A stretch of 64,000 nt of DNA from a virus (Duplodnaviria; Caudoviricetes). Below are positions 6,877 through 58,524 of this stretch, piece by piece. The notes under the pieces are model-generated. The model saw only the letters and a list, made by a program, of their open reading frames with translations. It did not search any database and was not told where the DNA came from. How positions within the stretch are numbered: position 1 is the first letter of the stretch; each line of letters starts with the position of its first letter. The position numbers and the translations under genes were made by a program. Location: the IMG/VR virus record IMGVR_UViG_3300050034_000334. One strand, 5' to 3'.

Positions 6877-7409
6877 ACTTCTCCTATCCTTGCAGTCTCT
6901 CGACGAAGCCGTTCATCATTGGTTTTCACCAAATCAGAAAACTGTTTCATGACACTGTCAATTGTAGTTCTGTCCAGTCCTGACTCTTTCAGAGATTTAG
7001 TATACAGAGTCATTAGCTCAACAAAAACGAATTGGAATTTTGGGCCGTCAAACGACAAAAAATCCTTCTTGGAAAGGATATCACTTTCAGTCAGTGATTT
7101 CTGCAATTCCCGAAGCATTTTGATTTCGTCATTCAAACTTCGACGCTGTGATATGAAGGTGGGATCGGAGTTGCCCAGCAGCACCAGTTCCTTGAGAGCG
7201 ATGGTCATCTCAATGGTGATCATCCTGGAGATGTCAGCGACCGATGAAGTCTGGTCCTGCATCTTCACCAGAATGTCTTCGATGTTCGTTTTCCGGTGCT
7301 TCGGCCCATCATCCTTCTCTTCTTCTTTCGGAGGCATAGTATTCTCAGGAGACGGAGCTACCTTTCCATCTGAGCCATCACTGAGAAATTTGAACTCCTG
7401 GTCTTCCAT
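6873..7409 (-). CDS. Hypothetical helical protein
   Basis: 178 aa ORF, overlaps both neighbours at start/stop. Confidence 0.75.
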   Translation of the reverse strand: MEDQEFKFLSDGSDGKVAPSPENTMPPKEEEKDDGPKHRKTNIEDILVKMQDQTSSVADISRMITIEMTIALKELVLLGNSDPTFISQRRSLNDEIKMLRELQKSLTESDILSKKDFLSFDGPKFQFVFVELMTLYTKSLKESGLDRTTIDSVMKQFSDLVKTNDERLRRETARIGEV

Positions 7410-8728
7410 TAAATCTCCAATGAGAAGTGAGAGCCAACTTCAATCTCGTATCCTTTGGGCTGGATGATGTCAATGTCTCCCAGCTTGGCAGTCGACGAGA
7501 GGTCGTATTCATTAAGCATCTGATGACCATCTTTCGGTGCACCAGAAGCAATCTTGTGGTTGGAAGAAGCCGTGCTCATCCCAGGGAAGCTCAGCAAAGT
7601 CCCGCCAGTGAGACCGCAGTGCATGCTGCTGCGATAAGCACAAGAGGAACACTTGGGTGCTCCAACGATGGCGTTCTGGACTCCCAATTTCCCCTTGAGG
7701 AAACGGCAGTCAATCTGGGAGAGAGCGATCTTGGTTCCTGCAGTCTTCAATCCACCCACGAACTTCTTCACGACATCAGCCGCCCGGACTACGCCAGCGG
7801 TCTTGACACCGAATGAATAAATCTTCTCGAGGGATGCTCCAGCAGTGTGAGCCTTGGAAATTGCAGCAACGGTGAATTCCGGAGAGGTGGTCTTGATGGT
7901 AGAAGCTGTCTTGGCCGCCGTGGTTCTCTGGGTGACCTTGTCATCCACTCGGACGATAGGAGCCTTGTCAGCGGTCTTCTGCTCGGCGCCATCACGGATC
8001 TTGGCAAGGTGTTCGGCTGCAGTAAACTGCTTCTTTTCCATGAACTTGTTGGGTTCCCAATAGTCCATGCCGTTCACATCTTCTGTTCCGCCGGCATCCA
8101 GATACTCGTGGGCAGAATTCCAGTTGAAGATGACATTTTCAGCCAGCTTCTTCTTGAGATAGTTGCTGATCTTCTCCTTGGAGTGACCGGCAGCTATGGC
8201 CTTGCGAATGCCCGCCCGGATGCTCTCATCAGAGATACGCTTGCCCTTGGTTTCGACTGTGGTGCCCTTGGCTTTCTCAAGTGAGATTGAGACATCCGCC
8301 AGCGCATTGTCATCCGAAGTGACCGCCGCCGCGCGATTCTTCCAGTCGTTGGGGACGGAAGAAACTCGAACGGTATCAAACGGATCTCCAAGAGGATCTC
8401 TGTCGTCGATTGGTTGCGAAACTTGCGCAGTCAAACCCTCTTCAGAGCAACCATTGTTATAGCAGCGAAGTACACCCAGTTGGTCCTTCTGCAATGGTTT
8501 ACTGCATGCCGGGCAATTCTGGTCGTACCCAGAGGCAAAGTGAACACCACCGTGGACTTCTCCTCGGTCACCTTCAATGGAACGTGTGAATGCCTTGTCA
8601 ACCTCGTCATGAGTCAGGTTCAAGAGTTCCTGACCAGAAGCTCTGGCTGCATTGAGTCCCACATCCTCATAGTCCGATGGTCCGTCAAGGAACGCGTCGA
8701 TGATACTCGAATACAGTTTTTCTGCCAT
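7409..8728 (-). CDS. Hypothetical K-x-A motif protein with Cys-rich segments
   Basis: 439 aa; CPAC...CYNNGC and CSSCAY...HC clusters; QKTA, AKTA, HKIA motifs. Confidence 0.75.
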   Translation of the reverse strand: MAEKLYSSIIDAFLDGPSDYEDVGLNAARASGQELLNLTHDEVDKAFTRSIEGDRGEVHGGVHFASGYDQNCPACSKPLQKDQLGVLRCYNNGCSEEGLTAQVSQPIDDRDPLGDPFDTVRVSSVPNDWKNRAAAVTSDDNALADVSISLEKAKGTTVETKGKRISDESIRAGIRKAIAAGHSKEKISNYLKKKLAENVIFNWNSAHEYLDAGGTEDVNGMDYWEPNKFMEKKQFTAAEHLAKIRDGAEQKTADKAPIVRVDDKVTQRTTAAKTASTIKTTSPEFTVAAISKAHTAGASLEKIYSFGVKTAGVVRAADVVKKFVGGLKTAGTKIALSQIDCRFLKGKLGVQNAIVGAPKCSSCAYRSSMHCGLTGGTLLSFPGMSTASSNHKIASGAPKDGHQMLNEYDLSSTAKLGDIDIIQPKGYEIEVGSHFSLEI

Positions 8729-9519
8729 TACAACCCTCCTTGGTATAGGCCGGACTTGGACCTATTTCTTTCAGCAATTCGAATTGCCTGAGCAGCGCGA
8801 CGTTCGGGAGTCCATGCCGATACCATTTTCTTGCAAAATTCGGAAGAACGCTTCTGACCTAGGTTTGAAAGACGACTTTTTAGACGCTCTTCTTGTGAAA
8901 CTACCCTTCCCTTGGAGGATTCTCTGTGCTTTCGACGAGTTTCATCAGTTACACCTGCTCTAATGGCTGAAGAAGAGTTTTCTCTGTAGTCTGGATCTCT
9001 CCATAAACTTTCCATTCTTACAGCAAGTAAATCGTAATTGACAGAAGGAGTTTTTCCCTTCCTCTGAGCACAAAATAGAGCTCTTGTGAAATTTGAATGA
9101 GTCCTGCCGGTACTACTGACCCTGTGTTTCTCTCGTGTATCCTCAGAAACGAACCTTCCTGTCATTGCTACACGCAGCTTCTGCTTTGTGGATTCTGAGG
9201 AAGTTCTCCCACGCATAGGAGCACCTGCTTGAAGAGCGATGTTGTACCCACTATGAACAGCATCGAAAGCATCAATGGCTAGCTGTTCTTTCTCCAGAAG
9301 TTGCTCTGTAGGACAGTAAATAATCACGTCGAATTCAAAAACGGATTCTCCATACTTATTGAAGGCATTCTGAAGTTTGGGGTTGTAATGCTTGTTTGTT
9401 TTCAACTCTCCGAAGTGTTCCTGGCATCTCTTTGATAAATCGGCACTGCTTCCTATGTACACTTTTTGGTTCAAAGTGTTTAGTATCCTGTAAACCCCGC
9501 AATTTGACCAATCATTCAT
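8728..9519 (-). CDS. GIY-YIG homing endonuclease with NUMOD3-like repeats
   Basis: GVYRILNTLNQKVYIGSS; HYNPKLQNAFNKYG; basic repeat tail. Confidence 0.9.
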   Translation of the reverse strand: MNDWSNCGVYRILNTLNQKVYIGSSADLSKRCQEHFGELKTNKHYNPKLQNAFNKYGESVFEFDVIIYCPTEQLLEKEQLAIDAFDAVHSGYNIALQAGAPMRGRTSSESTKQKLRVAMTGRFVSEDTREKHRVSSTGRTHSNFTRALFCAQRKGKTPSVNYDLLAVRMESLWRDPDYRENSSSAIRAGVTDETRRKHRESSKGRVVSQEERLKSRLSNLGQKRSSEFCKKMVSAWTPERRAAQAIRIAERNRSKSGLYQGGL

Positions 9520-9901: not shown

Positions 9902-10642
9902 CTATCGGTTTGCCCTAGATACAAAAACGCTGCGCTCGAAATCTGGATCAGAAACATCAATGCAAAACTCTCCTAGGATGTCCGGATCCCGGAGTTGAAT
10001 GTGTCCCTGCTTTGATAGTTTCCGTCTGCTGTATCCCATCCCAGACGCACTCGCCTTCTCAATGAGACCTTGTAGATAGGCACCCAGGGCCTTGCCTTGT
10101 CGATTCTCAGACTGCTCCAGAACTTGAGCAGCGCGACGTATAGCTCGACGCACATCAGGGCGATGCAAGTGGAATACGTCAGCGACAATCTGAAAACTTT
10201 TGGTCTTCTCGTAAAGTTCGATCGCCTTCGACATCTCCATATTCTCGAGCAAAGTGGACTCAAGTCCTTCCTTCTCCAAAATGCCCTTCATCGCTTCCTG
10301 AGTGGGAGGTCCCAGCAGGATGAAAGTGCCCACTCGTTCTACCGCCTTCCGGATCAGAAACGAACACAGAGTCTGTGTTGTGCGGTGGATGACCGCCAGC
10401 GTGTTCTGTGTCTTGGAGAGGAGATAGTAGCTGAGGAGAAGTTCTTGATCTTCTTTGGAAAGGTAACGGATGATCCTGAGGAACTCGGTGAAGTTTTCTT
10501 CCACATAGGTGAAGATGTCATTCTCAGACAAATCCGCCTGAGTTTCCAATGAAATAGTTGTAATCCCTTCCAGCGATTGGTCCTCAGAAAGGAGAAGAGA
10601 TCTTTGTGCGGTAACGGCGTCCATGTAAGGTGATGATTCCAT
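9902..10642 (-). CDS. Sigma-70 region 4-like / double HTH transcription factor
   Basis: YLSKEDQELLLSYYLLSKTQNTLA resembles sigma region 4; second HTH SFQIVADVFHLHRPDVRRAIRRA; start moved to ATG 10642 after GAAGGAGG. Confidence 0.5.
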   Translation of the reverse strand: MESSPYMDAVTAQRSLLLSEDQSLEGITTISLETQADLSENDIFTYVEENFTEFLRIIRYLSKEDQELLLSYYLLSKTQNTLAVIHRTTQTLCSFLIRKAVERVGTFILLGPPTQEAMKGILEKEGLESTLLENMEMSKAIELYEKTKSFQIVADVFHLHRPDVRRAIRRAAQVLEQSENRQGKALGAYLQGLIEKASASGMGYSRRKLSKQGHIQLRDPDILGEFCIDVSDPDFERSVFVSRANR

Positions 10643-10647
10643 GGTAC

Positions 10648-11355
10648 TTAACCCTCCTTCTGCCAAAGAACAGCAGCTCCCTTCATACCAATTTCTGACA
10701 TGCGATTAGGATTTGAGAGAATTTGTTTCCTAGCTCTTTCAGCCTGAGCCTTACGGCGTTCAGGAGTCCATGCTGATTTCATTTTTGTTGTGATTTTAGA
10801 TTTCCATTCAGGATCTTGCCAATTTTCTCTTAACTCTTTTGCAGCACTCTGTATGCCTTTAGCTGTATCTTCGGCAGTGAACTTGTAGTAGTCCTTATCA
10901 GCTTTCCTTCTTACCCAGGCTCTTCTCAGTTTGACAATCGCAGAATCGGAATGCTTCTTTCCCACTCTTCTAACTTTGATGTCGTCCTTGAATTTTTGCG
11001 ATTGAGCACGCTTCTTCCCAGCCGCTCTGCAGGCCTCTACTTGCCCTGGCCATGTACCTCCATCCCATCCATTTTGTGCTGCGTTGTACCCAGTGTCTCT
11101 CAGATGGGACTGTAATCTAAGTATCCAAGCGGACTCTCTGGCTCTCAACCAGAGTTCGTCTTCAACTTCTTCTAGAATCTCAAAATCCCAAAAATCTGAT
11201 TGCTTGTTCCAAGCTCTTTGCAGATAAGGATTTCTGTGTTTACCCGCTATCAAGTCCTTCTTGTGATTTTGAAGACGATTTTCCACGTCTACAGAGGAAC
11301 CTATGTAGACCTTACCATTTACCAGATTGAGAATCCAGTAAACTCCAGCAACCAT
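10648..11355 (-). CDS. GIY-YIG homing endonuclease
   Basis: GVYWILNLVNGKVYIGSS; HRNPYLQRAWNK. Confidence 0.9.
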   Translation of the reverse strand: MVAGVYWILNLVNGKVYIGSSVDVENRLQNHKKDLIAGKHRNPYLQRAWNKQSDFWDFEILEEVEDELWLRARESAWILRLQSHLRDTGYNAAQNGWDGGTWPGQVEACRAAGKKRAQSQKFKDDIKVRRVGKKHSDSAIVKLRRAWVRRKADKDYYKFTAEDTAKGIQSAAKELRENWQDPEWKSKITTKMKSAWTPERRKAQAERARKQILSNPNRMSEIGMKGAAVLWQKEG

Positions 11356-11366
11356 TTGGGTTACTC

Positions 11367-11404
11367 ACCTCCTACCCGATATCTATAATACTTCGGTAGA
11401 AGGT
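11367..11404 (-). promoter_or_regulatory. Hairpin sequestering the AGGAGG RBS of GIY-YIG gene 10648..11355
   Basis: Minus strand ACCTTCTACCGA-loop-TCGGGTAGGAGGT, about 12 bp with one bulge. Confidence 0.65.
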
Positions 11405-11915: not shown

Positions 11916-13823
11916 CTACTTCCTGACAGGACGAGCACGAGTGAGCTTCGAACCGAACTTCTTCGAAGGATCATCGTTGCCCATCCAGTAGTTGTCGGAG
12001 CCAGAGGCTTCCTTGACTTCATCCTCGATAGGCTCCTCTTCGACAGGTGGCGGTGGCAGCGCAGGCTCTTCTTCGATGTGCTCTTCTTCCATGCCCATGC
12101 CCGGCTCTTCCTCGGTGTGAATTTCCACACCAGAGTTTTCGGCCAGGTTCTCGATGGCGCCAGCGGCTTCATCCAGGAGTCCATACACTTCGCTCAAGGC
12201 CTCGCCGAACTGCTCCGGCTCTTCCTCAGCCAGCTTCTTCAGGCCGGCAGCGAACTTGGAGGCTGCTGCCTTCTTCTCGGTCGGACTCGCTGTCTTCGGT
12301 GGATCGGAGAGATTGAGATTGTCTCTCATGTTGAGGAAGGAAGCACGAAGCGAGCCGAAAACATTGGCCAGTTCCGTAAGGGCTGACTTCACTTCCATGG
12401 GTTCATTCTTCGCAAGGAGAACCAACTTGTGCTGCTTGGGTGCCGCAGTGGCTGTTCTCGCCTTCTTGCGATTCGCGATTTTCTTGAGCAACTCTTGACG
12501 AGTAGTTGTTGAAGTTGCGGCCATGATGGGTTTCTCCTGTTTTGAAGCGTTCAAACTTGTGTGCAAGATCTGATTTGGAAGATCTGGAGGAACGGTCACC
12601 CGCTCCTTGCGCTCTTGAGGTTGACCAGGTGTGGGAGGAGCTCCTTCACTTCCTGGAGGTGGTGTATTCTGAGGTGCCCCATTGGGATTCACCACAGGAA
12701 TCTCTTCTTCCTGACCGGGAGCAGCTGGTGCTGTGCTCGAACCTGGAGTGGTGTGGTAGTAATCAGCCGTCTTCAGGGAGCTAAGCAACAGAGAGGATTT
12801 CTTGGAAGGAGTCTCAACTCCTCCAATGCGATCACGAATCAGATTCAGAATGCTGTGTGATGGATCGTACTCCGAGAACTCCATCATCAGCTTGCCGAAC
12901 TCCTTGTAGAGTTGCTTGAGACGATCGCCGCCCAAGCCGGTGTCACTCTTGAACTTGTCGAGGAACTCGGACTTCTTGCCATGTTCAGACTCGACAATGT
13001 AGTCGAAGATCATCGCCATCACCTTGGCGATCTTTTCAGACTTCTTGGTCTCCTTGACAAATTCATAGAACTCGTCGCGGATGGTCTTGAGTTCGTCCTC
13101 TTCCTCGATGTCCTTCACGCTCCTGTTGGCCTGAGCATGCTCTTCAGTGTCGAGGATGTTGAACTCGGTACCATCGTCTTCGGATTCTTGAATCAGTGAG
13201 ACCTGATGCTGTGAAGGCTCCTCTGAATCTTTGCCTTTCTTCCAATCCACATGCCTGTCGATGAAGTCTTTGGCATCACTGAGACGATAGCCAAAAATGT
13301 ATCTCAGATAGCCAGTTATCTGCTTTTCAAGAGGCTTGGTTCTGTCCTCTTCTGGGACCCTGTTCGGATCGAACTTGGAAAGAGTCTTGCGATCATACAA
13401 CTCTCTGACGAGAACGTGAGAGATCGCTTCATCCACCAAGTCCTCATCAAGTCCACCGGCTGCTCCCTCTCCATAGAGACGAGAGATGTAGTTCTTTTGG
13501 AACCACTTGTCCCAGTTCTGGGCTTCGTCAATAGGATAACCGGATTCCTTGATTGCCTCCTTGACGATCTTGTCGATCTCCAACCCATAGACTGCGATCA
13601 TTCGCAATGTTGCCACGAAACGCATCATCTTGGGTGAAGTGATCAATCCCTTCTTGGCCAACTCGGAGGAGCTCAAGGTCAGCTTTTGTGTTCCAGCTAT
13701 GTTTGTAAGCTGGTATTTCTCTCCAGATGGGGAGGCAATTTTCGCCTTCACCCGGAAGGAACGTCCTTCCCTGGTTGTGATTATCTGACCTGGATCAATC
13801 GAAATGTGAGCATTCAGTATCAT
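11916..13823 (-). CDS. Modular K-x-A motif protein containing a sigma-70-like domain
   Basis: EDLVDEA...SKFDP...ITGYLRYIF...VSL...GLGGDRLKQLYKEFGKLM; KTA motifs in C-terminal half. Confidence 0.55.
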   Translation of the reverse strand: MILNAHISIDPGQIITTREGRSFRVKAKIASPSGEKYQLTNIAGTQKLTLSSSELAKKGLITSPKMMRFVATLRMIAVYGLEIDKIVKEAIKESGYPIDEAQNWDKWFQKNYISRLYGEGAAGGLDEDLVDEAISHVLVRELYDRKTLSKFDPNRVPEEDRTKPLEKQITGYLRYIFGYRLSDAKDFIDRHVDWKKGKDSEEPSQHQVSLIQESEDDGTEFNILDTEEHAQANRSVKDIEEEDELKTIRDEFYEFVKETKKSEKIAKVMAMIFDYIVESEHGKKSEFLDKFKSDTGLGGDRLKQLYKEFGKLMMEFSEYDPSHSILNLIRDRIGGVETPSKKSSLLLSSLKTADYYHTTPGSSTAPAAPGQEEEIPVVNPNGAPQNTPPPGSEGAPPTPGQPQERKERVTVPPDLPNQILHTSLNASKQEKPIMAATSTTTRQELLKKIANRKKARTATAAPKQHKLVLLAKNEPMEVKSALTELANVFGSLRASFLNMRDNLNLSDPPKTASPTEKKAAASKFAAGLKKLAEEEPEQFGEALSEVYGLLDEAAGAIENLAENSGVEIHTEEEPGMGMEEEHIEEEPALPPPPVEEEPIEDEVKEASGSDNYWMGNDDPSKKFGSKLTRARPVRK

Positions 13824-18745: not shown

Positions 18746-19236
18746 AGGTACACTCCAATCGGTTGCAACGTGCCATCAACATCAGCGTAGACGAAAGGCC
18801 CAAATTCAGTAATTTCCAGATACGACAGTACCTTTGGTACTCCACAAACTACAGCAAAACCGTAAAGTCTCGATTCAATGGAATCAAGCACCTCAATCAG
18901 TTGTGGTACACTACTAATCATTGCGTAAATGAAAGTTCCAGAATTATCAACCGCCAGGTAAGGAGAAACTGTAAATGGCGGGTTTGGCATGTGGTGAATC
19001 ACCTGTACAACATTGTCCGTAGTTAGCGAGATTCCCAAGTACAGCTGGTAAGTTGTCGTGGCAGCGTCATACAAGAAAGATTTCACCTGAATTTGAATAC
19101 CATCCACCCAAACCTCAACATCAGTCATGGGATTGAAATTCACCGTTAGGGCATCCACAGTTCGACTGAATGGTCCTCCTATCGAAGAGATCAGGTTGAC
19201 CACGTTCCCAAGGAACTCTGTGCTAACCTGTGACAT
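18742..19236 (-). CDS. Hypothetical virion protein
   Basis: 164 aa beta-rich ORF in operon. Confidence 0.7.
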   Translation of the reverse strand: MSQVSTEFLGNVVNLISSIGGPFSRTVDALTVNFNPMTDVEVWVDGIQIQVKSFLYDAATTTYQLYLGISLTTDNVVQVIHHMPNPPFTVSPYLAVDNSGTFIYAMISSVPQLIEVLDSIESRLYGFAVVCGVPKVLSYLEITEFGPFVYADVDGTLQPIGVYL

Positions 19237-21478
19237 CTTCGGTCTCCTCTTTCTCTTCGTCTAATGAAGACACCCTGAAATTCTGGTTCCTGTTGCGATT
19301 CTTCTTCCAGTTGTTGAACTTGTCATCCCGCATCTTCTTCAACCTCTTGCGATCGCCTTCTGCTTGTTCTTCGAGCTTGCGCTTTTCCTCCACAAGCATT
19401 TGGTCGATGAGGTCGTGATTCTGTGAATGGCTTTCCTCTTCGTCTTTAACATGCACTTCCTCTTTTCGAGGTTGTTGCAACTTTTCTTTCTGTTCCGCCG
19501 GGGTGGGCTGTGCTTCAACTGCAGCAGGAGCAGTGCGCTCAATTTCACGCTCGGTCTGTTCGTCAAGCTCAGCTTCTTCCTGCAGAAGACGATCACGCTC
19601 CTTGCGCTGCATCTCCTCAAGATCTTCTTTCTCCTTGGGAGTTCTGCGCTTCTTCTTGAGCAGCTGACGCTGGCGCATAGCCTCCTGCTCACGATCAAGA
19701 CGAGTAGGAGCTTTGGTAGGAGTCTGCTTGTATTCCTCAACCACCTTCTCACGAACCAGGTTCTGAATATTGTGCTGAACAGCCGGAAGGATGCGTTCAC
19801 ACACGGCCTTAATGTGTTTACAAATCAGAGCATTCGTTCTTAAATCGAGCCTTTCTTTGGGAGCTTGAAGTTTTGGTCTGGGTTCTCCTTCTAAAGCATC
19901 ACGTTCATGAAGGTTCCACTGATTTCCCCAGTACAGGAACGCCGGGCAATTATGTACCACCACTCCGTTAGCAATGAACGATTCGTCTTCTTCTACTGTC
20001 AAATCAAAAAATGATGGAGGACAGGATACCTGCTTCGCATAATTAAGGCAACGAAGAAATCCTTCTCTCCATTCCAAATCTCTAGATTCAGAAAACACTT
20101 TTCCCAGAGATTTTTCAACTCGTTCTTTATCTCTTTCACGTAGCCATTTGAACATTCGAAGAACTAGAGCAGGGTACTGTCTGTAGCTAATTCGCAGTCT
20201 AGTGTTAGTAAAACTTTGCCAAACTCCTTGGCTAAAGAGGAAAAAAGAGATTTGTTGAAGAAGATTTCTAGAGTAAGAAACAATATCTTGAGTGTCGTAC
20301 TCGATGTTTCCATCCCCTAGAGCATGACTAGAGATCAAATTCCACATTGCTTCCACATCCCAAGCGAGTATTTCCTCTGATAGTCTCTTGGTTAGACTAC
20401 CTTGCCCACACAATTCATACATCTGCTTAGCGAACTGGGAATCTTTCACTCTGACATTTATCCAACTATACTCAGAGTTGTCCTCAATCTCGATTCGAGC
20501 ATTAGGACCAAGGTAGCGACGTGCTCGTTCTGCTGTATCCTTGACTACAGTGTCTTTTTCGTTACGATTGTAGGTAAATGTTACTTCGTAGGCAGAGTAC
20601 TGCTCTCCGTCAACCACCACCTGAGCTGCTTTAACTTTCTTGGTAGACCTTCTTTTATGTAAATGCAAGCAACCTTCAGCGAGGTAGTATCCTGTCAAAG
20701 CAGCAAGATCTGGATCAACTACCTTAGTTCCTGTCCACGCGAACTTAGGGAAGTACAGTGTCTCTCGGTCAACTATTTCCAAGGGAGTTTTCCAAAAAGA
20801 AGAAATCTCTGGTTTAACCAACAGTCTAGTATTTCCTAGAGTGTTATGTCCGGATAAGAAATTTCTACCAAGTCTCTTTTTAACAACAGAAGAATACTTT
20901 CCTGAAGTGGGCCATAGGGGTGCTCCACATCCACAAGCACAATTTTCTCTTCCTCTGACTACAGCAATAGGATGATCTTCAGACAAAATAAGCGGAGTCT
21001 GGTACCCTTTGGCTTTAACCTCCCAAGCCTGTTCTCCTTCTCTAGGTTTTCTTTCCGACACCGCTGTGACTTTCTTAGCTCTTCCCTTGTGAGTGATGAC
21101 ATGATCACCTACAGATACTTCATCTATTCTCTTCTCTGTTCCATCAGCCATCCTAATCATGCTGTCTAGAGCTACACAGCTGCAGTTCACTTTGATATCC
21201 AGATCATTGGCTCTCATTTCCGGAGTAACCTTAGACACGTCAAAGTGAACTTTCACATCATGACCGTTAGGATCGCTAGTTTCAAGATTACATTTGACAT
21301 TATAACGAAGGAAAAGGTCTTTGGGATCAGAAGCCTCAAGATGGGGAACGCAACCTGGTCTATTTTTCACAGAAAAACTGTTTGTTTGGGACACTAATTC
21401 CGGCAAAGATATAGCCAGCTTCACCTTCTTGGTAAGGTAATCCGACAATTTGAAAGAAGACCAGATTTCGCTCATCAT
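19223..21478 (-). CDS. SWIM zinc-finger protein interrupted by an intein
   Basis: Spliced product reads VNCS|CPAFLYWG...CKH (CxC-Xn-CxH); charged coiled-coil C-terminus. Confidence 0.8.
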   Translation of the reverse strand: MMSEIWSSFKLSDYLTKKVKLAISLPELVSQTNSFSVKNRPGCVPHLEASDPKDLFLRYNVKCNLETSDPNGHDVKVHFDVSKVTPEMRANDLDIKVNCSCVALDSMIRMADGTEKRIDEVSVGDHVITHKGRAKKVTAVSERKPREGEQAWEVKAKGYQTPLILSEDHPIAVVRGRENCACGCGAPLWPTSGKYSSVVKKRLGRNFLSGHNTLGNTRLLVKPEISSFWKTPLEIVDRETLYFPKFAWTGTKVVDPDLAALTGYYLAEGCLHLHKRRSTKKVKAAQVVVDGEQYSAYEVTFTYNRNEKDTVVKDTAERARRYLGPNARIEIEDNSEYSWINVRVKDSQFAKQMYELCGQGSLTKRLSEEILAWDVEAMWNLISSHALGDGNIEYDTQDIVSYSRNLLQQISFFLFSQGVWQSFTNTRLRISYRQYPALVLRMFKWLRERDKERVEKSLGKVFSESRDLEWREGFLRCLNYAKQVSCPPSFFDLTVEEDESFIANGVVVHNCPAFLYWGNQWNLHERDALEGEPRPKLQAPKERLDLRTNALICKHIKAVCERILPAVQHNIQNLVREKVVEEYKQTPTKAPTRLDREQEAMRQRQLLKKKRRTPKEKEDLEEMQRKERDRLLQEEAELDEQTEREIERTAPAAVEAQPTPAEQKEKLQQPRKEEVHVKDEEESHSQNHDLIDQMLVEEKRKLEEQAEGDRKRLKKMRDDKFNNWKKNRNRNQNFRVSSLDEEKEETEDVTG
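19949..21178 (-). mobile_element. Intein (410 aa) with LAGLIDADG endonuclease
   Basis: Begins CVALDSMIRMADG, block B LSEDHP, LTGYYLAEG and SHALGDG, ends FDLTVEEDESFIANGVVVHN followed by Cys+1. Confidence 0.92.
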
Positions 21479-29797: not shown

Positions 29798-30406
29798 TTA
29801 GATGGATTGTGAAGTCAAACAAGGAGGAATGAACACTTCTTTTCCTTCTCGCATCTGCTCTTCAGTTGTCAGGCGAGATTGATTCAGAGATTTATCTCTG
29901 CTCCAGTTATTCTGCTGCCGGCGCAGTCGCACAGTCTCTGCTATTCGTTGCTTTGTAGCCTCTGAATGCTTAGTAACTCCTCCGTGTTGAGTGGAACCCT
30001 TTGGTCTAGACAATCTCATTTTCTGTCGTGTTTCTTCCGGTAGACACTTGTTCCAAAAAGGATGATTTTCACCTCTCACTGCCTTGCTGATTCGTTTCCT
30101 AACATCTTTGTTAGGTTCTCCACCATCAGCTCCCTTTGTCATATTGTACCCATCGACAAAAGTTCCAAGTTTCTCTATCCAGAAGACTTCAGCCTCATTC
30201 AGTTCTTCAGGACTATCACAATGTTGAATTGTACTGATGTCAAATGCTGCCTCTCCGTGCTTTCTAAGGGATCTATGCAAGTAATAACGCGATCCTCTAG
30301 ATGATTCCAGCCGGTGTCTATACCAGCGATCATCAGGAGTATCCTTGATGCTCTGGCCTACATACATCTTACCATTTATCCTGTTTCGTACCAAGTAGAC
30401 TATCAT
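29798..30406 (-). CDS. GIY-YIG homing endonuclease with NUMOD3
   Basis: MIVYLVRNRINGKMYVGQS; GENHPFW; ATGA overlap with upstream stop. Confidence 0.88.
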   Translation of the reverse strand: MIVYLVRNRINGKMYVGQSIKDTPDDRWYRHRLESSRGSRYYLHRSLRKHGEAAFDISTIQHCDSPEELNEAEVFWIEKLGTFVDGYNMTKGADGGEPNKDVRKRISKAVRGENHPFWNKCLPEETRQKMRLSRPKGSTQHGGVTKHSEATKQRIAETVRLRRQQNNWSRDKSLNQSRLTTEEQMREGKEVFIPPCLTSQSI

Positions 30407-31923
30407 GACATTATTGCCCCCCAAACCGTTGTCCTTCCAACTTCTGGATTGGGATTTTCCCACTGAGCATCTGGCTGATTGGTCTTTTCGAAGATAGGTT
30501 CCGGATCGACGCCAGGTACTCCATCGTTGACATTCGCCTGCAATGGATTGTACAAAGTGGGAGGATATGGATTCCCAGCAATGACCGGAATGAGGTAACG
30601 AGTGTCTTTGGGATTCAGCAACTTGACATTGAACTCTTGCTGAGCGATAGCACCCTGAGGCTGCGTATAGTTCATGTCGAACACGATCAGCCGTTCACCG
30701 TTCCGTCGAATGATGAGGTCACCATTTTGAATGATGGGAGTCGGTCCAAGGTAGGATTTCGAGATGCGCTCTACTTTCCGGCCTCCCTCCTCAATGGTGG
30801 TATTGGTTGCCGTGTCTGGCGGAATGTAGACAATGTCGAATGGTCCGTAGTATCCGCCAACCCATCCTGTTTCGTAACACACTGGGCAGCCGTGACGAGG
30901 CTCTCCAACTCCGTCTCCCACGCAGCCACACGCTGTACCTCGCGACATCCGGAACATGATAAATGCTGGCTCTCCTACTCTCTCAAAGAGCCAGGCATTT
31001 CTCCGTATCTGCTCCTTGAGCATGTAATTCAGACGTTCAATCGTCTGAGTGTTGACGATTTCCGATCCTGCAGCACCGGGTGCGTGGAGATCTCCACTTG
31101 CTCCTACTGGGACCACGGTGTAGTATGTCCGCACCATGTTGGTATAGATGTCGACGAAGTTCGTCAACTGGTTGTAAGTCACCTTGAAGGTAGTGACACT
31201 GGCTAGAGCCGAAATTGGGAAGTTGGAAACTGCACCACCGATTGGCAGAGTCTTGTCAACATTGATCCAGATGGCCTTGTCAATTCCACTCACCATCGCA
31301 GGGCGAACAGTCGAGGTTGCAACGAGGCTCGATATCACCGTGAGAGTATCTGTAGGAACGGTTGGTGCCAGCGAAAGGGTATATGGTCCACCATAAGCGA
31401 CAAGGGTGGCAGTCACTCCGATGGACGCAGCTGTGATGGCCGCCGCAAGCAGTACGATGCTATTGTTGGAGGTGGTTGTGAAAACCACAGGAGTTGATAC
31501 TCCCACTTGTAGAGAAATGGTTCCGGAGAGAACATCGGTACCAGAAACTGTGGTGAGGGAACCATTCAGGAAATTCAGATCCGTTGCAAGTATGACACTG
31601 ACATCCTCAGGAGAAGTGGCCACCTGAGGTCTGGTCTCCACAATCCCTGAATATGGAACGTCTGGAATCTGAAATGACCAGCGACCAAAAGTTCCCTTTT
31701 CAATCCAGTCGGAATCTTGCACTGTGTAAGTGGTTGAGGCTAGAGTTGAAATGTCACGATAGAACTGACCAGGAATTGGAGCAAGATTGAGCAGTTGCCA
31801 GTTGGCTGGATAGTCGATAGCTCGGTAGACATTGTATCCCACTGTGGCCTTGGGATCATTTGGCCACCACAGGTCACGGCTCCCGACATAGCTCGAATTG
31901 AGGACTACCAACCCACAAATCAT
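30403..31923 (-). CDS. Probable head-tail joining (neck) protein
   Basis: FN3-like N-term (VGYNVYRA); CGC...CPVCYETGWVGGY motif seen in large-phage neck proteins. Confidence 0.5.
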   Translation of the reverse strand: MICGLVVLNSSYVGSRDLWWPNDPKATVGYNVYRAIDYPANWQLLNLAPIPGQFYRDISTLASTTYTVQDSDWIEKGTFGRWSFQIPDVPYSGIVETRPQVATSPEDVSVILATDLNFLNGSLTTVSGTDVLSGTISLQVGVSTPVVFTTTSNNSIVLLAAAITAASIGVTATLVAYGGPYTLSLAPTVPTDTLTVISSLVATSTVRPAMVSGIDKAIWINVDKTLPIGGAVSNFPISALASVTTFKVTYNQLTNFVDIYTNMVRTYYTVVPVGASGDLHAPGAAGSEIVNTQTIERLNYMLKEQIRRNAWLFERVGEPAFIMFRMSRGTACGCVGDGVGEPRHGCPVCYETGWVGGYYGPFDIVYIPPDTATNTTIEEGGRKVERISKSYLGPTPIIQNGDLIIRRNGERLIVFDMNYTQPQGAIAQQEFNVKLLNPKDTRYLIPVIAGNPYPPTLYNPLQANVNDGVPGVDPEPIFEKTNQPDAQWENPNPEVGRTTVWGAIMS

Positions 31924-32448: not shown

Positions 32449-33153
32449 CTATAGAGAAAGAGAAAGTTCACAAAAGGAACATCCTGGTTTTTTAATTCCT
32501 CGATTGAGATGCCAACGTGTGTGATGAGCCTTTGGAAGACTTCGAGCAGCTATCCGACCGGCTCTTTGTAGGGTTTCTCTGGAATGAGACTTGCCTCCAA
32601 GGGAGTGAACTTCACGAGACATGCGGGTTGACATTTCTTCCGGATGTTCTTCCGCATATTTCCGGCAACCAGCTACTCGAGGAGTTTCGTCTTGGACTGC
32701 ACGGGCTGCCTTGATTTTGTCAATGGTTTCCTCCGAAGTGAGATGTCCCATCATCTTGGCAGAGAACCTTTCTTTATGACCAGGACGTTGCCACATGAGA
32801 CGAGTGTTTTCAATTATCTTGAGACGAGATTCTTCAGAGTGAGGTGCAGTATGCCCTTCTCCACCTTTGCAAATATTGTATCCGATTTCAGGATCACGAG
32901 CTAAGAAAATCTTAATCAGTGCTTGTTCCCAAACACAGAGAGCCTCATTATTTGCACAATCAGTAACGAGAGGATAGATAGTGAAATTATCCCAACCATA
33001 CTTTCGAACAGCATTATAGAGATGAGGCTTTCCAGCATCGCCTTTCAGAATTGAATCTTTCTGCCTAGACCAATAATGTTGAAGATTGTTCTCTTTCGTT
33101 TTACCGACATAGATCTTGCAGTTTACCACATTGACGATCACGTAGACAAACAT
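32449..33153 (-). CDS. GIY-YIG homing endonuclease
   Basis: MFVYVIVNVVNCKIYVGKT; HLYNAVRKYG; GYNICKGGEG. Confidence 0.9.
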   Translation of the reverse strand: MFVYVIVNVVNCKIYVGKTKENNLQHYWSRQKDSILKGDAGKPHLYNAVRKYGWDNFTIYPLVTDCANNEALCVWEQALIKIFLARDPEIGYNICKGGEGHTAPHSEESRLKIIENTRLMWQRPGHKERFSAKMMGHLTSEETIDKIKAARAVQDETPRVAGCRKYAEEHPEEMSTRMSREVHSLGGKSHSRETLQRAGRIAARSLPKAHHTRWHLNRGIKKPGCSFCELSLSL

Positions 33154-35180: not shown

Positions 35181-35208
35181 TACCCGAAACTCGTGTCCCT
35201 TCGGTAGA
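35181..35208 (+). promoter_or_regulatory. TACCCGA-N16-GTAGA promoter-like motif
   Basis: Exact motif upstream of GGAGG RBS and ATG 35226. Confidence 0.65.
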
Positions 35209-35829: not shown

Positions 35830-35857
35830 TACCCGAAACTCACATGAACTCCGTAGA
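35830..35857 (+). promoter_or_regulatory. TACCCGA-N16-GTAGA promoter-like motif
   Basis: Exact motif 7 nt upstream of ATG 35865. Confidence 0.65.
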
Positions 35858-49809: not shown

Positions 49810-49837
49810 TCTACCAGTAGAATCGTAAATTCGGGTA
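49810..49837 (-). promoter_or_regulatory. TACCCGA-N16-GTAGA promoter-like motif
   Basis: Exact motif 7 nt upstream of ATG 49802. Confidence 0.65.
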
Positions 49838-52090: not shown

Positions 52091-52118
52091 TCTACTGTCT
52101 TTGAGTGAAAATCGGGTA
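52091..52118 (-). promoter_or_regulatory. TACCCGA-N16-GTAGA promoter-like motif
   Basis: Exact motif 7 nt upstream of PARP ATG 52083. Confidence 0.65.
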
Positions 52119-56082: not shown

Positions 56083-56748
56083 TTACTGGGCAACCACTTC
56101 GAAGCGAACCGACTTGATCCACTTCTCGGCTTCGGCCTTCGGAACGATCCACTTGCCTTTGCGCTTCTCACCGACAAGCTGACTCGATCGGAGAGCCTTC
56201 ATCACAAGAGTTTCGGTGCTACCGGCCAATTTGGCTACTGTACTAGCACTCCAAAATCCTCTTGGAGCAGGATTGGAACCTTGACGACGCTTCTTGCGAG
56301 GAGCAGGCACTGGGAGATCTTCGATGTTAGGGAGTCCAGGAGCTTCGACCCTGGGGATGACAATCTCCTCTTCGTCGTCCAGGGCGAAGTTGAAGATCTT
56401 CTTCTGCTTGAAGTATTGAGTTTGGACGATGTCGAAGTAGTTCAACAGGGAGAGTGTCACATCCTTGGACTTGTCGCGACACCACTCGATCAGATTGAGG
56501 AGATACCAGTCAGGTAGATCTCTCCTCTTGAACTCGTTCATCAAAGTCCGGATGCCCTCGGGATTGATGTCATGTGAATTGCGGCGCTCGCCGCGCTCCG
56601 TGGTCACCTTGCCTTTGGTGATTGGCCAAAACTCCTCGCACCAGGAGACCGCAGTATCGAACACCTCTTGTGGATCAACGCATGTGTTAATGGAGCGTTC
56701 GATGAATGGAACCAGTTTGGGATCATTAAAGGGTCGCATCATACCCAC
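56083..56748 (-). CDS. Protein with C-terminal excisionase-like HTH
   Basis: SASTVAKLAGSTETLVMKALRSSQLVGEK..GKWIVP. Confidence 0.55.
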   Translation of the reverse strand: MGMMRPFNDPKLVPFIERSINTCVDPQEVFDTAVSWCEEFWPITKGKVTTERGERRNSHDINPEGIRTLMNEFKRRDLPDWYLLNLIEWCRDKSKDVTLSLLNYFDIVQTQYFKQKKIFNFALDDEEEIVIPRVEAPGLPNIEDLPVPAPRKKRRQGSNPAPRGFWSASTVAKLAGSTETLVMKALRSSQLVGEKRKGKWIVPKAEAEKWIKSVRFEVVAQ

Positions 56749-56799
56749 TCAATACTGGGGAATTCAGGACTACCAAAATCAGAACAAAGGATGGATGTC

Positions 56800-57225
56800 A
56801 TGAAGATCTGGATTTGTTTGTTCTTGGTTTGTGCTCCATTGTTGCTTGGTCAAACAGCTAAAAAGACGACTCAGTATGTCAAGACCAAAAGTGTTCAAGC
56901 AAGCACTGGATGCGCCTTAGTCGATAGGACACAGTGCTCTCTCAATGCCATGTTGACGTCTGTCAGATCACTCAATACCGTGGAAACCATGAGAGTCTAC
57001 CAGCAAGGAGGACACGATCTGCTTCTTCCTGACTGGCTGGCTGAAAACCAGACGAGACTGTCCTTTTACAACACAGGATGTCTGTACGGAGATAGACTGG
57101 TTACCGGATGGCTGATCAGACGAGGACATCCTCGCTGGGCGAAGGCGGTCACCATCATAGACATGGGAGTGGTCATTCCATTTACAGCACGAAATATGAA
57201 GGTAGATTTTCAGTCTACGAAGTAG
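56800..57225 (+). CDS. Putative exported/membrane protein
   Basis: MKIWICLFLVCAPLLLG signal-like N-terminus. Confidence 0.55.
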   Translation: MKIWICLFLVCAPLLLGQTAKKTTQYVKTKSVQASTGCALVDRTQCSLNAMLTSVRSLNTVETMRVYQQGGHDLLLPDWLAENQTRLSFYNTGCLYGDRLVTGWLIRRGHPRWAKAVTIIDMGVVIPFTARNMKVDFQSTK

Positions 57226-57226
57226 T

Positions 57227-57303
57227 TGGAGGACGGAGAGAGAATCGAACTCTCGCATTATGGGATTTGCAGTCCCACGCCTTACCGTCTTGGCTATCCG
57301 TCC
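57227..57303 (-). tRNA. tRNA-Cys(GCA)
   Basis: Cloverleaf; TGGGA-CTGCAAA-TCCCA; U73, encoded CCA. Confidence 0.95.
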
Positions 57304-57310
57304 TCAATTT

Positions 57311-57384
57311 TGGCACCGCCGAAGGGATTCGAACCCCTACACCTGGCTCCAAAGGCCAGAGTCCTGCCATTAAACGACGGCGGT
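57311..57384 (-). tRNA. tRNA-Gln(TTG)
   Basis: CTGGC-CTTTGGA-GCCAG; G73, encoded CCA. Confidence 0.93.
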
Positions 57385-57395
57385 GTATTTCTAAC

Positions 57396-57605
57396 TCATA
57401 CTGATACAAAATGACACGAGTTGTGCCACTCTCTTGACATGAACGAACCCTTGGGCCGGTCAGGATTCTCAACCAGCAGACTGACCCCTCCACTATCTTC
57501 GTTGTGAGTGTCTCGAACGACGTAAAATTCGGGTGCAGGCCGCCAGTACACAAGATCCTTCGCGGCCTCCTTCATCCGAACTTTGTCGCCCTTCTTGTAT
57601 TCCAT
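57396..57605 (-). CDS. Small hypothetical protein
   Basis: 69 aa MEYKKGDKVR; AAGGTG RBS. Confidence 0.65.
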   Translation of the reverse strand: MEYKKGDKVRMKEAAKDLVYWRPAPEFYVVRDTHNEDSGGVSLLVENPDRPKGSFMSREWHNSCHFVSV

Positions 57606-57606
57606 C

Positions 57607-58524
57607 TCACACCTTCATAAATTTCTTGTCTCTCAATTCTTGCATGCTCAATTTCTTCCTAGAAAGTCCGAATTTCTTGGCCCATTCATGAACTGTCATA
57701 GCACTGACGCCGTAGATATTTCCAATTTGGCGATAACCAGTGTGTTCTAAGTGAGTTCTAAGTTCTTCAACCGGCGGAATTTTCTTCATTAGACCACAAG
57801 CTGAACTGCAGTGAACTACTGTTTTGTCCCTAGTCACGAATTCTTTCTCGCACTTAGGACAAACTCGGACAAATTCAGAAATTGCACCTCTCCCTGGCAA
57901 CCAGCCTAGACGAATTCTCTCTTTAGCCTCACTCTCTGGCACCGAAATAACCTCTGAATTTTTGTACATCCACATATTTCCAAAAGAGTGATTATTTTCT
58001 CCCATTGCGAGCCTAGACATCTCTTTTCTACATTCAAGAGTATGATGCTTACCTCTACGAGATTCTGCCAATCTCCTACAAGCAGCTAGAAGTTTTGGAG
58101 TAACCCGCTTGGGAAGGACTCTAATCCTGTTCCACTTCTCCATAAATTCTCTAGCAAATTCAGGATCTCGTCGCCTTCTTTCTTGAACCTTCTGAGAGCC
58201 CAGTCTTCCCCAGGATACTCTGTCAAATTTGAAGTGAGTGTTGACGTAGTCAAACCCACCAGATCCCCCTTTTCTCAGATTCATACAAAGAGGATCTTTC
58301 CGATGAAGTTCTACTACCTCATCTTCTTTCTTCCAGGCTTCCTCCTGAGTTTCAAACTCGAAGAGAATTTCTTTCTTAAAACTTGCTGGACCATACTTTG
58401 CAACGGCTCGTATGATGTAAGTACCAGAACCAAGATACTCATCATTTGGGTTATCAGTCTTATGAACACCCAAGTAGAACTTGCCGTTGACCAAATTCAC
58501 TGTTTTGTATACAGTGTATATCAT
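57607..58524 (-). CDS. GIY-YIG homing endonuclease within tRNA cluster
   Basis: MIYTVYKTVNLVNGKFYLGVH...YLGSG; GGAGG RBS; start moved out of the tRNA. Confidence 0.88.
   Translation of the reverse strand: MIYTVYKTVNLVNGKFYLGVHKTDNPNDEYLGSGTYIIRAVAKYGPASFKKEILFEFETQEEAWKKEDEVVELHRKDPLCMNLRKGGSGGFDYVNTHFKFDRVSWGRLGSQKVQERRRRDPEFAREFMEKWNRIRVLPKRVTPKLLAACRRLAESRRGKHHTLECRKEMSRLAMGENNHSFGNMWMYKNSEVISVPESEAKERIRLGWLPGRGAISEFVRVCPKCEKEFVTRDKTVVHCSSACGLMKKIPPVEELRTHLEHTGYRQIGNIYGVSAMTVHEWAKKFGLSRKKLSMQELRDKKFMKV

Follow-up and report, generated by a model that had tools for sequence, protein, structure and literature searches.

A divergent sigma-like module behind a Tudor-like barrel in a modular, possibly packaged protein of a soil jumbo phage

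The 64,000-nucleotide (nt) stretch of DNA that we analyzed, called the window below, is part of IMG/VR virus record IMGVR_UViG_3300050034_000334, a contig of 143.6 kb that CheckV scores as 46% complete, which puts the whole genome at ~300 kb. The source is an uncultured soil jumbo phage whose host was probably a member of the Acidobacteriota. Genes of the record include those for a portal protein, a DNA polymerase, RIIA/RIIB, and several giant proteins bearing GNAT, NUDIX, and InPase/MuF-like domains; no homolog of RNA polymerase (RNAP) β or β′ is found in the 143-kb part of the genome that it contains, an absence that fits a presumed dependence on the RNAP of the host. Our subject is P0001, a gene of 635 residues (11916-13823, minus strand; taken from the list of open reading frames [ORFs] and its translation), in which an earlier note had placed a sigma-70-like domain. 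From N terminus to C terminus, P0001 is made up of a Tudor barrel, a connector, a sigma-2-like domain, an acidic linker, a sigma-4-like domain, a conserved site termed site 1, a Pro-rich linker, and a C-terminal module.

P0001 is a member of a previously unrecognized, Pfam-invisible family of more than 200 proteins. With an exhaustive profile search we collected 214 relatives (E ≤ 1e-3), of which 69 had an E value below 1e-30; P0001 matched no family in Pfam or PHROG, and a search of the BFVD viral folds retrieved only uncharacterized proteins (E > 0.003). The only cultured relative is Tunturi_5, a 309-kb jumbo phage of Tunturiibacter (Acidobacteriota), whose gp345, labeled "virion structural protein," is a P0001 homolog at 27-30% identity. 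The family is modular: the N-terminal part (N-module, residues ~1-340) recurs at the N terminus of proteins of 400-1900 amino acids (aa), and the C-terminal part (C-module, ~434-620) is found also as a standalone protein of 150-350 aa. The 143-kb contig holds no second copy of either module.

The sequence strings on which the sigma claim had been built are all present in the 635-aa ORF: RMIA (residues 74-77), EDLVDEA (127-133), SKFDP (149-153), ITGYLRYIF (169-177), the acidic linker, GLGGDRLKQLYKEFGKLM (296-313), and LKTA (350-353). The interval originally assigned to the domain, 12860-13590, corresponds to residues 78-321 and is about right. We built an AlphaFold2 (AF2) model of residues 1-340 from a 67-sequence alignment (mean predicted local distance difference test score [pLDDT] 84, predicted TM score 0.68); the full-length model was too poor for the C-terminal half (pLDDT 56). 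Within the model of residues 1-340, the barrel covers residues 14-51, the connector helices 64-116, and the first helical domain 127-199. The N-module opens with a Tudor/SH3-like β-barrel (residues 8-63; 13635-13802, on the minus strand, as are all P0001 features given below; pLDDT 85-95), followed by connector helices (residues 64-120; 13464-13634; defined from alignments A1 and A3; pLDDT 77-96) that hold the most conserved motif of the family, GLPVD..NW.KWF, with P97 and W104 invariant in the 67 sequences. There follow a sigma region-2-like helical domain (residues 121-199; 13227-13463; DEDLVDEA ... KFDP ... PLEKQITGYLRYIFGYR), an acidic disordered linker (residues 200-235; 13119-13226; pLDDT <50 at 203-214) with a net charge of -9 and a short motif, E..NILDTEEHA (13134-13160), that is conserved in A1 and A3, and a sigma region-4-like helical domain with a helix-turn-helix (HTH; residues 236-333; 12825-13118; TGLGGDRLKQLYKEFGKLM). 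Past site 1, a Pro-rich low-complexity linker (residues 355-433; 12525-12761; from pLDDT 23-33 and the alignments) ends in a conserved TVPPDLPNQ motif, and long relatives carry inserts or DMP19/NUDIX domains at its position instead. The sigma-like region had been described as flanked by unrelated low-complexity segments; this proved wrong for the N-terminal flank, because a folded Tudor barrel and conserved helices were modeled there.

Residues ~121-333 likely form a diverged sigma-2/linker/sigma-4 module, and four largely independent, more sensitive approaches (profile-profile comparison, structure search, the ESM Atlas, and a transitive link) converged on sigma. In the profile-profile comparison, we used HHalign to align the family profile with a profile of 26 extracytoplasmic function (ECF) sigma factors from genomes across one phylum. 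Residues 125-191 fell on RpoE 42-90 (regions 2.1-2.4) with a score of 23.8 (P 0.002, probability 14%), in the register that had been proposed from the letters alone. Column shuffles gave a mean of 11.3 (standard deviation 2.2, maximum 19.6), with 0 of 200 reaching 23.8, and the reversed control scored 12.3; at 5.7 standard deviations above the shuffles, the sigma resemblance of the region-2-like half goes beyond chance but is weak. HHalign against a single RpoE sequence was uninformative. For a wide structure search, VIA-align was run without the Foldseek prefilter, and its best nonbarrel matches were both to sigma factors. Residues 95-328 covered 148 of the 174 residues of the Mycobacterium tuberculosis ECF sigma factor SigL (6dv9_F, Z 6.0), with a root mean square deviation (rmsd) of 28 because the two domains are placed independently, and residues 235-328 superposed on sigma-4 of Thermus aquaticus sigmaA (Z 5.8, rmsd 3.7, 80 residues). 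When the top Foldseek chains were realigned, the sigma-4 match was seen again in three Thermus thermophilus holoenzymes (Z 5.8-6.3); overall, the matches in the four holoenzyme entries span 80-82 residues at an rmsd of 3.5-3.8. Sigma70_r2 was present in 23 of the 30 named ESM Atlas clusters nearest to residues 95-335, mostly phage sigma clusters with scores of 0.94-0.95, and the top row of the Atlas structure search was a sigma-70 cluster (TM 0.35).

The transitive link came from a 506-aa sigma-like ORF of the same phage, located ~2.3 kb before the window (contig 56564-58084, equivalent to L124:16564-18084, minus strand). The C-terminal half of the 506-aa family profile is collinear with RpoE 20-182, nearly all of RpoE (P 8e-4, 154 columns), and the family profile is collinear with P0001 104-321 (P 0.0025, 183 columns). 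The 506-aa/RpoE, 506-aa/P0001, and P0001/RpoE alignments agree on the residues of regions 2.4 and 4.2, and GLGGDRLKQLYKEFGKLM falls via this link on the region-4.2 recognition helix; the sigma-4-like half is tied to ECF factors by profile solely through the 506-aa family, which Pfam sigma profiles miss. PF28530 lies in the N-terminal half of four close relatives of the 506-aa protein. From these individually weak but convergent signals, we infer that this part of P0001 is probably homologous to sigma factors.

Barrels of the kind found at the N terminus of P0001 include the C-terminal Tudor domain of UvrD/PcrA, CarD, and Mfd, all of which grip the RNAP β lobe. In the wide VIA-align search, the top row for the barrel was the TraI translocation-signal domain (Z 7.3), together with the CarD RNAP-interacting domain (Z 7.1-7.5, following helix included), the UvrD/PcrA C-terminal Tudor domain (Z 6.3-6.4), and many generic Tudor domains with essentially tied scores, and CarD and Mfd topped both Foldseek lists. 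The barrel thus has the Tudor-like fold of the CarD_TRCF RNAP-interacting domain, in a tie with TraI and generic Tudor domains; it matched no Pfam family, CarD_TRCF included, at E ≤ 1 in P0001. At the level of the modeled fold, this likeness suggests a second RNAP contact.

The C-module (residues 434-635; 11919-12524) consists of two repeated helical units, an acidic tail, and a conserved C-terminal motif. It matched no family in Pfam or PHROG, its fold matches were of the generic helical-hairpin type only, and it contains neither an anti-sigma family match nor a Cys/His (zinc) motif. Directly in front of it lies a Shine-Dalgarno sequence, AGGAG (12534-12538), separated by a 9-nt spacer from the ATG of Met434 (12522-12524; whole element 12522-12538), so that an in-frame internal ribosome-binding site and a start codon sit together at the module border, as in nested genes. 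GGAGG followed after 5 to 8 nt by ATG is found at the equivalent junction in L131, L137, and the split gene of L133, loci of related phages, and standalone C-module proteins begin at the Met434 position. Met434 is probably an in-frame internal start for the C-module and, given the in-frame AGGAG-ATG, P0001 probably gives rise to a free 202-aa C-module in addition to the fusion. In many related phages (split pairs, L129-L140), the N-module and C-module are two adjacent genes, as in L140 (694 aa, then 182 aa), L133-136 (476, then 270), and L130 (570, then 291), and the partner gene directly downstream gives an adjacency like that of ECF sigma and anti-sigma genes. The N-module and C-module ORFs overlap by ~40 bases in different frames in L131/L132 (7756-7801) and L138/L139 (8761-8801); what looks like two genes there could instead reflect a frameshift, either programmed or erroneous. 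The C-module may be a capsid-targeting or coassembly module or, by analogy with the order of ECF operons, it may be an anti-sigma-like partner.

Three short [K/R/H]-x-A sites stand out in P0001. Site 1, LKTAD (residues 350-354; 12762-12776), is a candidate protease site just past the N-module, with K351 and A353 invariant in alignment A1. The pattern S-L-[K/R/H]-x-A-[D/E/A] was present at this place in 70 of 94 relatives, compared with ~48% expected from a loose pattern, and its middle residue varies in distant homologs. Site 2, PKTAS (residues 509-513; 12285-12299), lies between the two C-module repeats in a near-invariant P-K-[T/E]-A-S-[L/I/V]; among 33 C-module proteins, we counted P in 30, K in 23 (plus R in 3), A in 31, and S in 26. 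Site 3, KEASG (residues 604-608; 12000-12014), near the C terminus, has the form K-E-A-[A/S]-G and is invariant in A1, with K, E, and A each found in 22 of the 33 C-module proteins (about two-thirds). LKTA had been proposed as the end of the sigma-like module, and a positionally conserved site does lie there. RMIA had been proposed as the other boundary and cleavage site; we rejected it as a cleavage site because it is inside a helix and does not follow the K-x-A pattern. Several Tudor-less homologs start with Met right at RMIA (about residue 77), which makes it a natural module border.

KTA tripeptides are concentrated in a few large proteins of the contig. Six large proteins (5,659 aa) contain 21 KTA tripeptides compared with 8 in the other 39,332 aa (odds ratio 18, Fisher P 2e-13, for a grouping that was chosen post hoc), and four of the six carry GNAT, NUDIX, or InPase/MuF-like domains, which are typical of polyvalent proteins (PMC5512222). 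The enrichment and the conserved sites fit putative cutting by a head-maturation protease and packaging. T4-type capsid and protease Pfam models matched nothing in Tunturi_5 and nothing in the controls either, so this search was uninformative; capsid and protease genes were not spotted in 144 kb of Tunturi_5 annotation.

P0001 is the first gene of a conserved cluster, in which it is followed by P0002, a KTA-rich 439-aa protein, a small ORF, and a 1402-aa protein homologous to Tunturi_5 gp350 ("DarB-like antirestriction protein"). Genomic context of distant relatives was taken from IMG/VR loci, and the order from P0001 to the DarB-like gene was kept in relatives down to 26% identity. In support of the earlier interpretation, the neighbors of P0001 in this conserved cluster include K-T-A-rich, polyvalent-type proteins. 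The association with polyvalent or packaged proteins and head genes that such proteins show is found here in the DarB-like cluster and, on the contig, in the GNAT/NUDIX/InPase giants and the portal gene. P0001 itself has no recognized effector or enzyme domain in Pfam or PHROG and thus lacks the two or more conflict-related effector domains in one polypeptide by which polyvalent proteins are defined. Downstream of the N-module, relatives carry DMP19 (P0045, residues 605-701), NUDIX (P0047, 492-601), or ART-PolyVal (one member). As relatives vary downstream of it, the N-module appears to be a constant head for variable effector or partner parts, and roles in polymerase docking and as a packaging anchor would each explain such constancy.

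The earlier note had also named a second sigma-like gene at 9902-10642. This is P0002 (minus strand, 246 aa from Met9), an HTH protein and a conserved syntenic neighbor of P0001. Its family comprises at least 200 homologs at 53-86% identity, on contigs of up to 1.4 Mb, and is far better conserved than the neighboring genes; two members are named "sigma24" by the Joint Genome Institute, and some carry Phage_antitermQ. P0002 genes lie directly downstream of P0001 homologs in L126, L128, L138, L140, and Tunturi_5, always linked to P0001. In Pfam, P0002 gave only a subthreshold match to Sigma70_r4_2 (E 0.021); its profile had nothing significant in common with ECF sigma factors beyond a region-4.2-like HTH (P 0.15), no match among solved sigma factors, and no relation to the N-module. 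We therefore rejected the assignment as unproven and consider P0002, on its sequence, an HTH protein and not a demonstrable sigma factor. The Tunturi_5 homolog gp346 (L001:11041-11775) is annotated as "exonuclease," a label that its HTH-only signal does not support.

Other genes nearby deserve brief mention. The 439-aa protein (7409-8728, minus strand) has four KTA sites, all grouped in its C-terminal half, and gives a weak match to a zinc ribbon (C-x2-C ... C-x4-C, DNA_ligase_ZBD E 0.17), and it adjoins P0002 also in Tunturi_5 (gp348) and L140. GIY-YIG homing endonuclease genes lie between genes of the cluster (8728-9519 and 10648-11355, minus strand) and farther away (29798-30463 and 32449-33153); in relatives, GIY-YIG insertions are at other positions or absent. 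On the other side of P0001, 14353-18000 (minus strand) encodes a 1215-aa Ala/Thr/Gly-rich, fiber-like protein with a signal-peptide-like N terminus (MKTLLAFLTFAMVVTTAIVAQQ); L126 and L127, relatives at 91-92% identity, lack the gene at this position. A 751-aa protein (19223-21478, minus strand) has subthreshold Intein_splicing and Hint matches over residues ~105-510, and, as the homologs from L126, L128, and L138 have only 315-340 aa, it probably carries an intein.

The promoter-like element that the earlier note had tentatively assigned to the sigma factor, TACCCGA-N16-GTAGA, is real. The window contains five copies compared with 0.01 expected, at 11373-11400, 35181-35208, and 35830-35857 on the plus strand and at 49810-49837 and 52091-52118 on the minus strand, and the spacing is always 16 bases. 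On the 143-kb contig, TACCCGA-N16-GTAGA(G) occurs eight times (three outside the window), each time 7-20 nt upstream of an ATG and once directly before rIIA. The element resembles a class of phage promoters that serve genes with short leaders or none. The copy nearest to P0001, at 11373-11400, is on the opposite strand, and nothing in our data ties the element to P0001.

Taking this together, our best reading, to which we assign a probability of roughly one in two, is that P0001 is a modular protein, probably processed and packaged, with a sigma-like module that probably docks on RNAP. The constant head (residues 8-333) would combine a Tudor barrel of the CarD/Mfd/UvrD type with a very divergent ECF-type sigma module and would dock on host RNAP, where it could be a genuine specificity factor or else a subunit that docks on the enzyme or blocks it. 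A linker with conserved [K/R/H]-x-A sites at its borders would join the head to a helical partner module; the partner is presumably also made alone from the internal start, and many relatives encode it as a downstream gene of its own. Because P0001 shares its conserved cluster with K-T-A-rich, polyvalent-type proteins, the most likely life history would be late synthesis followed by procapsid loading, trimming by the head protease at K-x-A sites, and delivery together with the DNA. Packaging of P0001 in the virion we put just short of even odds. A more far-reaching scheme is unlikely: in it, a capsid-loaded sigma factor is freed from its partner at Lys-x-Ala by the head protease and injected, and it re-aims host RNAP before any phage gene is expressed, its target being phage early promoters, possibly TACCCGA-N16-GTAGA. 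That P0001 is a true injected sigma factor is likewise unlikely in our estimate.

Several results weigh against the sigma-like, packaged reading. Pfam sigma domains were absent at E ≤ 1 from P0001 and 67 relatives, PF04542 had no match on the whole contig even at E ≤ 10, and P0001 profiles searched against Protein Data Bank sequences found no solved sigma factor, only coiled-coil noise. HH probabilities were only 5-25%. The sigma-4 half (236-333) gave no direct HHalign signal to the ECF profile; what stands of the sigma-70-like domain first claimed is a divergent sigma-2/linker/sigma-4-like module, without direct profile support for its second half and without a Pfam sigma match. The structural test that the claim had invited, carried out on the AF2 model, did return sigma-2- and sigma-4-like superpositions, but at Z ~6 only, and structural Z scores in general (about 6-7.5) are within a range that the tool describes as common among helical or small domains. 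The barrel fits the TraI translocation-signal domain and generic Tudor domains as well as it fits CarD. Across the family, the sigma-2-like segment tends to be slightly acidic (median net charge -2; 18% of members positive), and by comparison ECF sigma-2 (+6) and the 506-aa family of this phage (+4) are basic; a role in classical -10 melting is therefore in doubt, and it is safer to speak of "RNAP-docking" than of a "promoter-specificity factor." Net charge does not discriminate for sigma-4, because control ECF sigma-4 domains are not basic either. On the side of packaging, the KTA protein grouping was picked after seeing the data, and the virion label of gp345 stems from an automated pipeline, as the Tunturi_5 paper (PMC11924767) reports no virion proteomics.

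Three other explanations have to be set beside this reading. P0001 could be an ordinary, nonpackaged phage sigma factor made during infection, with the C-module as a coencoded regulator like the anti-sigma factor downstream of ECF genes and with K-x-A serving structure or binding, or else marking where the partner undergoes regulated proteolysis in the cytoplasm. RNAP-less jumbo phages commonly encode sigma factors (PMC7824862, PMC13282480); the C-module gene directly follows the N-module gene in many relatives, which is the classic ECF sigma/anti-sigma operon order; the fusion and internal start in P0001 fit a tight stoichiometric pair; and the near-invariant P-K-T-A-S-L sits in the middle of the partner. 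We nevertheless consider this unlikely, since the C-module has no anti-sigma family match or zinc-binding motif and only generic helical matches, the gene is found among fiber and polyvalent-type genes rather than early or regulatory ones, N-module relatives bear effector domains typical of injected proteins, and the K-T-A motif is enriched in the neighboring giants too.

A second explanation takes P0001 out of transcription altogether and gives the N-module the part of a constant head that anchors, packages, or translocates variable cargo, like MuF in polyvalent proteins, with the sigma likeness due to common helical-bundle/HTH geometry or to an ancient exaptation without RNAP binding. Convergence of four different methods on sigma, and on nothing else, for residues 95-333 is difficult to reconcile with such a cargo head, as are a domain order and an acidic linker with a conserved motif that match the ECF layout and barrel matches that include three unrelated families binding the RNAP β lobe. 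It has in its favor the constancy of the N-module before variable inserts and DMP19/NUDIX/ART domains, the top rank of TraI in the wide search (Z 7.3), a sigma-2-like part that lacks the positive charge of true sigma-2, and the missing Pfam sigma signal, and we regard it as unlikely, to the same degree as the nonpackaged sigma factor. The last explanation, chance resemblance in a generic structural protein (scaffold or inner-body) with no specific molecular target, draws on the individual weakness of every similarity score, on the richness of P0001 in low-complexity and coiled helical segments, and on "virion structural protein" being its sole database label. A HHalign score that 0 of 200 shuffles matched, strong conservation of the N-module over 214 relatives with P97 and W104 invariant, and a confident, globular N-module model leave it very little room.

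Jumbo phages that lack an RNAP have to take over the host polymerase from the very start of infection, and to our knowledge little is known of how they begin, above all when their DNA is modified. If true, these phages would have a new solution in a packaged sigma-like docking protein, and a packaged sigma factor proper would add a third strategy to the known packaged transcription tools, injected polymerases (N4, phiKZ) and modifying enzymes (T4 Alt) (PMC5512222). In the searchable literature, polyvalent-protein survey and jumbo-phage reviews included, neither a packaged sigma factor nor a Tudor-sigma fusion came up; the word "sigma" has 0 occurrences in that survey (Iyer et al. 2017, PMC5512222), which lists no sigma module among polyvalent domains. 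What is new here is the Pfam-invisible family and a sigma-like core in an unusual architecture and context. Even without packaging, a CarD/UvrD-type barrel next to a sigma-like module points to a new way of gripping RNAP, and the cultured relative, Tunturi 5 gp345, with its host available, makes the idea directly testable.

Compared with known systems, the head of P0001 is closest to ECF (group 4) sigma factors such as Escherichia coli RpoE and M. tuberculosis SigL, which it resembles in the order of a sigma-2-like domain, a flexible acidic linker, and a sigma-4-like domain with a C-terminal HTH, as well as in the register of regions 2.1-2.4 (DEDLVDEA, FDP, and an aromatic-rich helix ending in R). 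It differs from them in falling below every Pfam threshold, in a 15-residue insert in region 2.3, and in an acidic sigma-2-like part where ECF sigma-2 is basic; moreover, its N-terminal Tudor barrel and connector are not known from any sigma factor, it is fused to a Pro-rich linker and partner module, and its RNAP and promoter binding are only putative. Like the domains of CarD, Mfd (TRCF), and UvrD/PcrA, the barrel has five strands over ~55 residues followed by a helix (VIA-align Z 6.3-7.5, rmsd 2.3-2.6 over 53-56 residues), but it has no sequence-family match, and its contact with the β lobe is putative. In the nested genes lambda C/Nu3 and Mu I/Z, the N-terminal part is a protease and the nested product a scaffold. 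The in-frame internal Shine-Dalgarno sequence and ATG of P0001 would similarly give the C-module alone plus the full fusion, whereas its N-terminal part is sigma-like and an assembly role of the C-module is only putative.

Head-protease motifs of the T4/phiKZ type are L/I-x-E or S/A/G-x-E. The candidate sites of P0001, which come from sequence alone, read [K/R/H]-x-A followed by a small or acidic residue and differ in this from those of head proteins processed by prohead proteases (T4 gp21 with IPI-III and Alt; phiKZ gp175/SPN3US gp245 substrates), but they resemble them in being a short, position-conserved motif with a variable middle residue, placed at module borders in linkers and common to several large proteins of the phage. 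With respect to polyvalent and packaged host-takeover proteins (PMC5512222; T4 Alt; P1 DarB), P0001 differs in having no recognized enzyme domain and in that its packaging is putative; it is like them in its place in a conserved cluster with a DarB-like giant, in the large GNAT, NUDIX, and InPase proteins nearby, and in having N-module relatives fused to DMP19, NUDIX, and ART-PolyVal domains.

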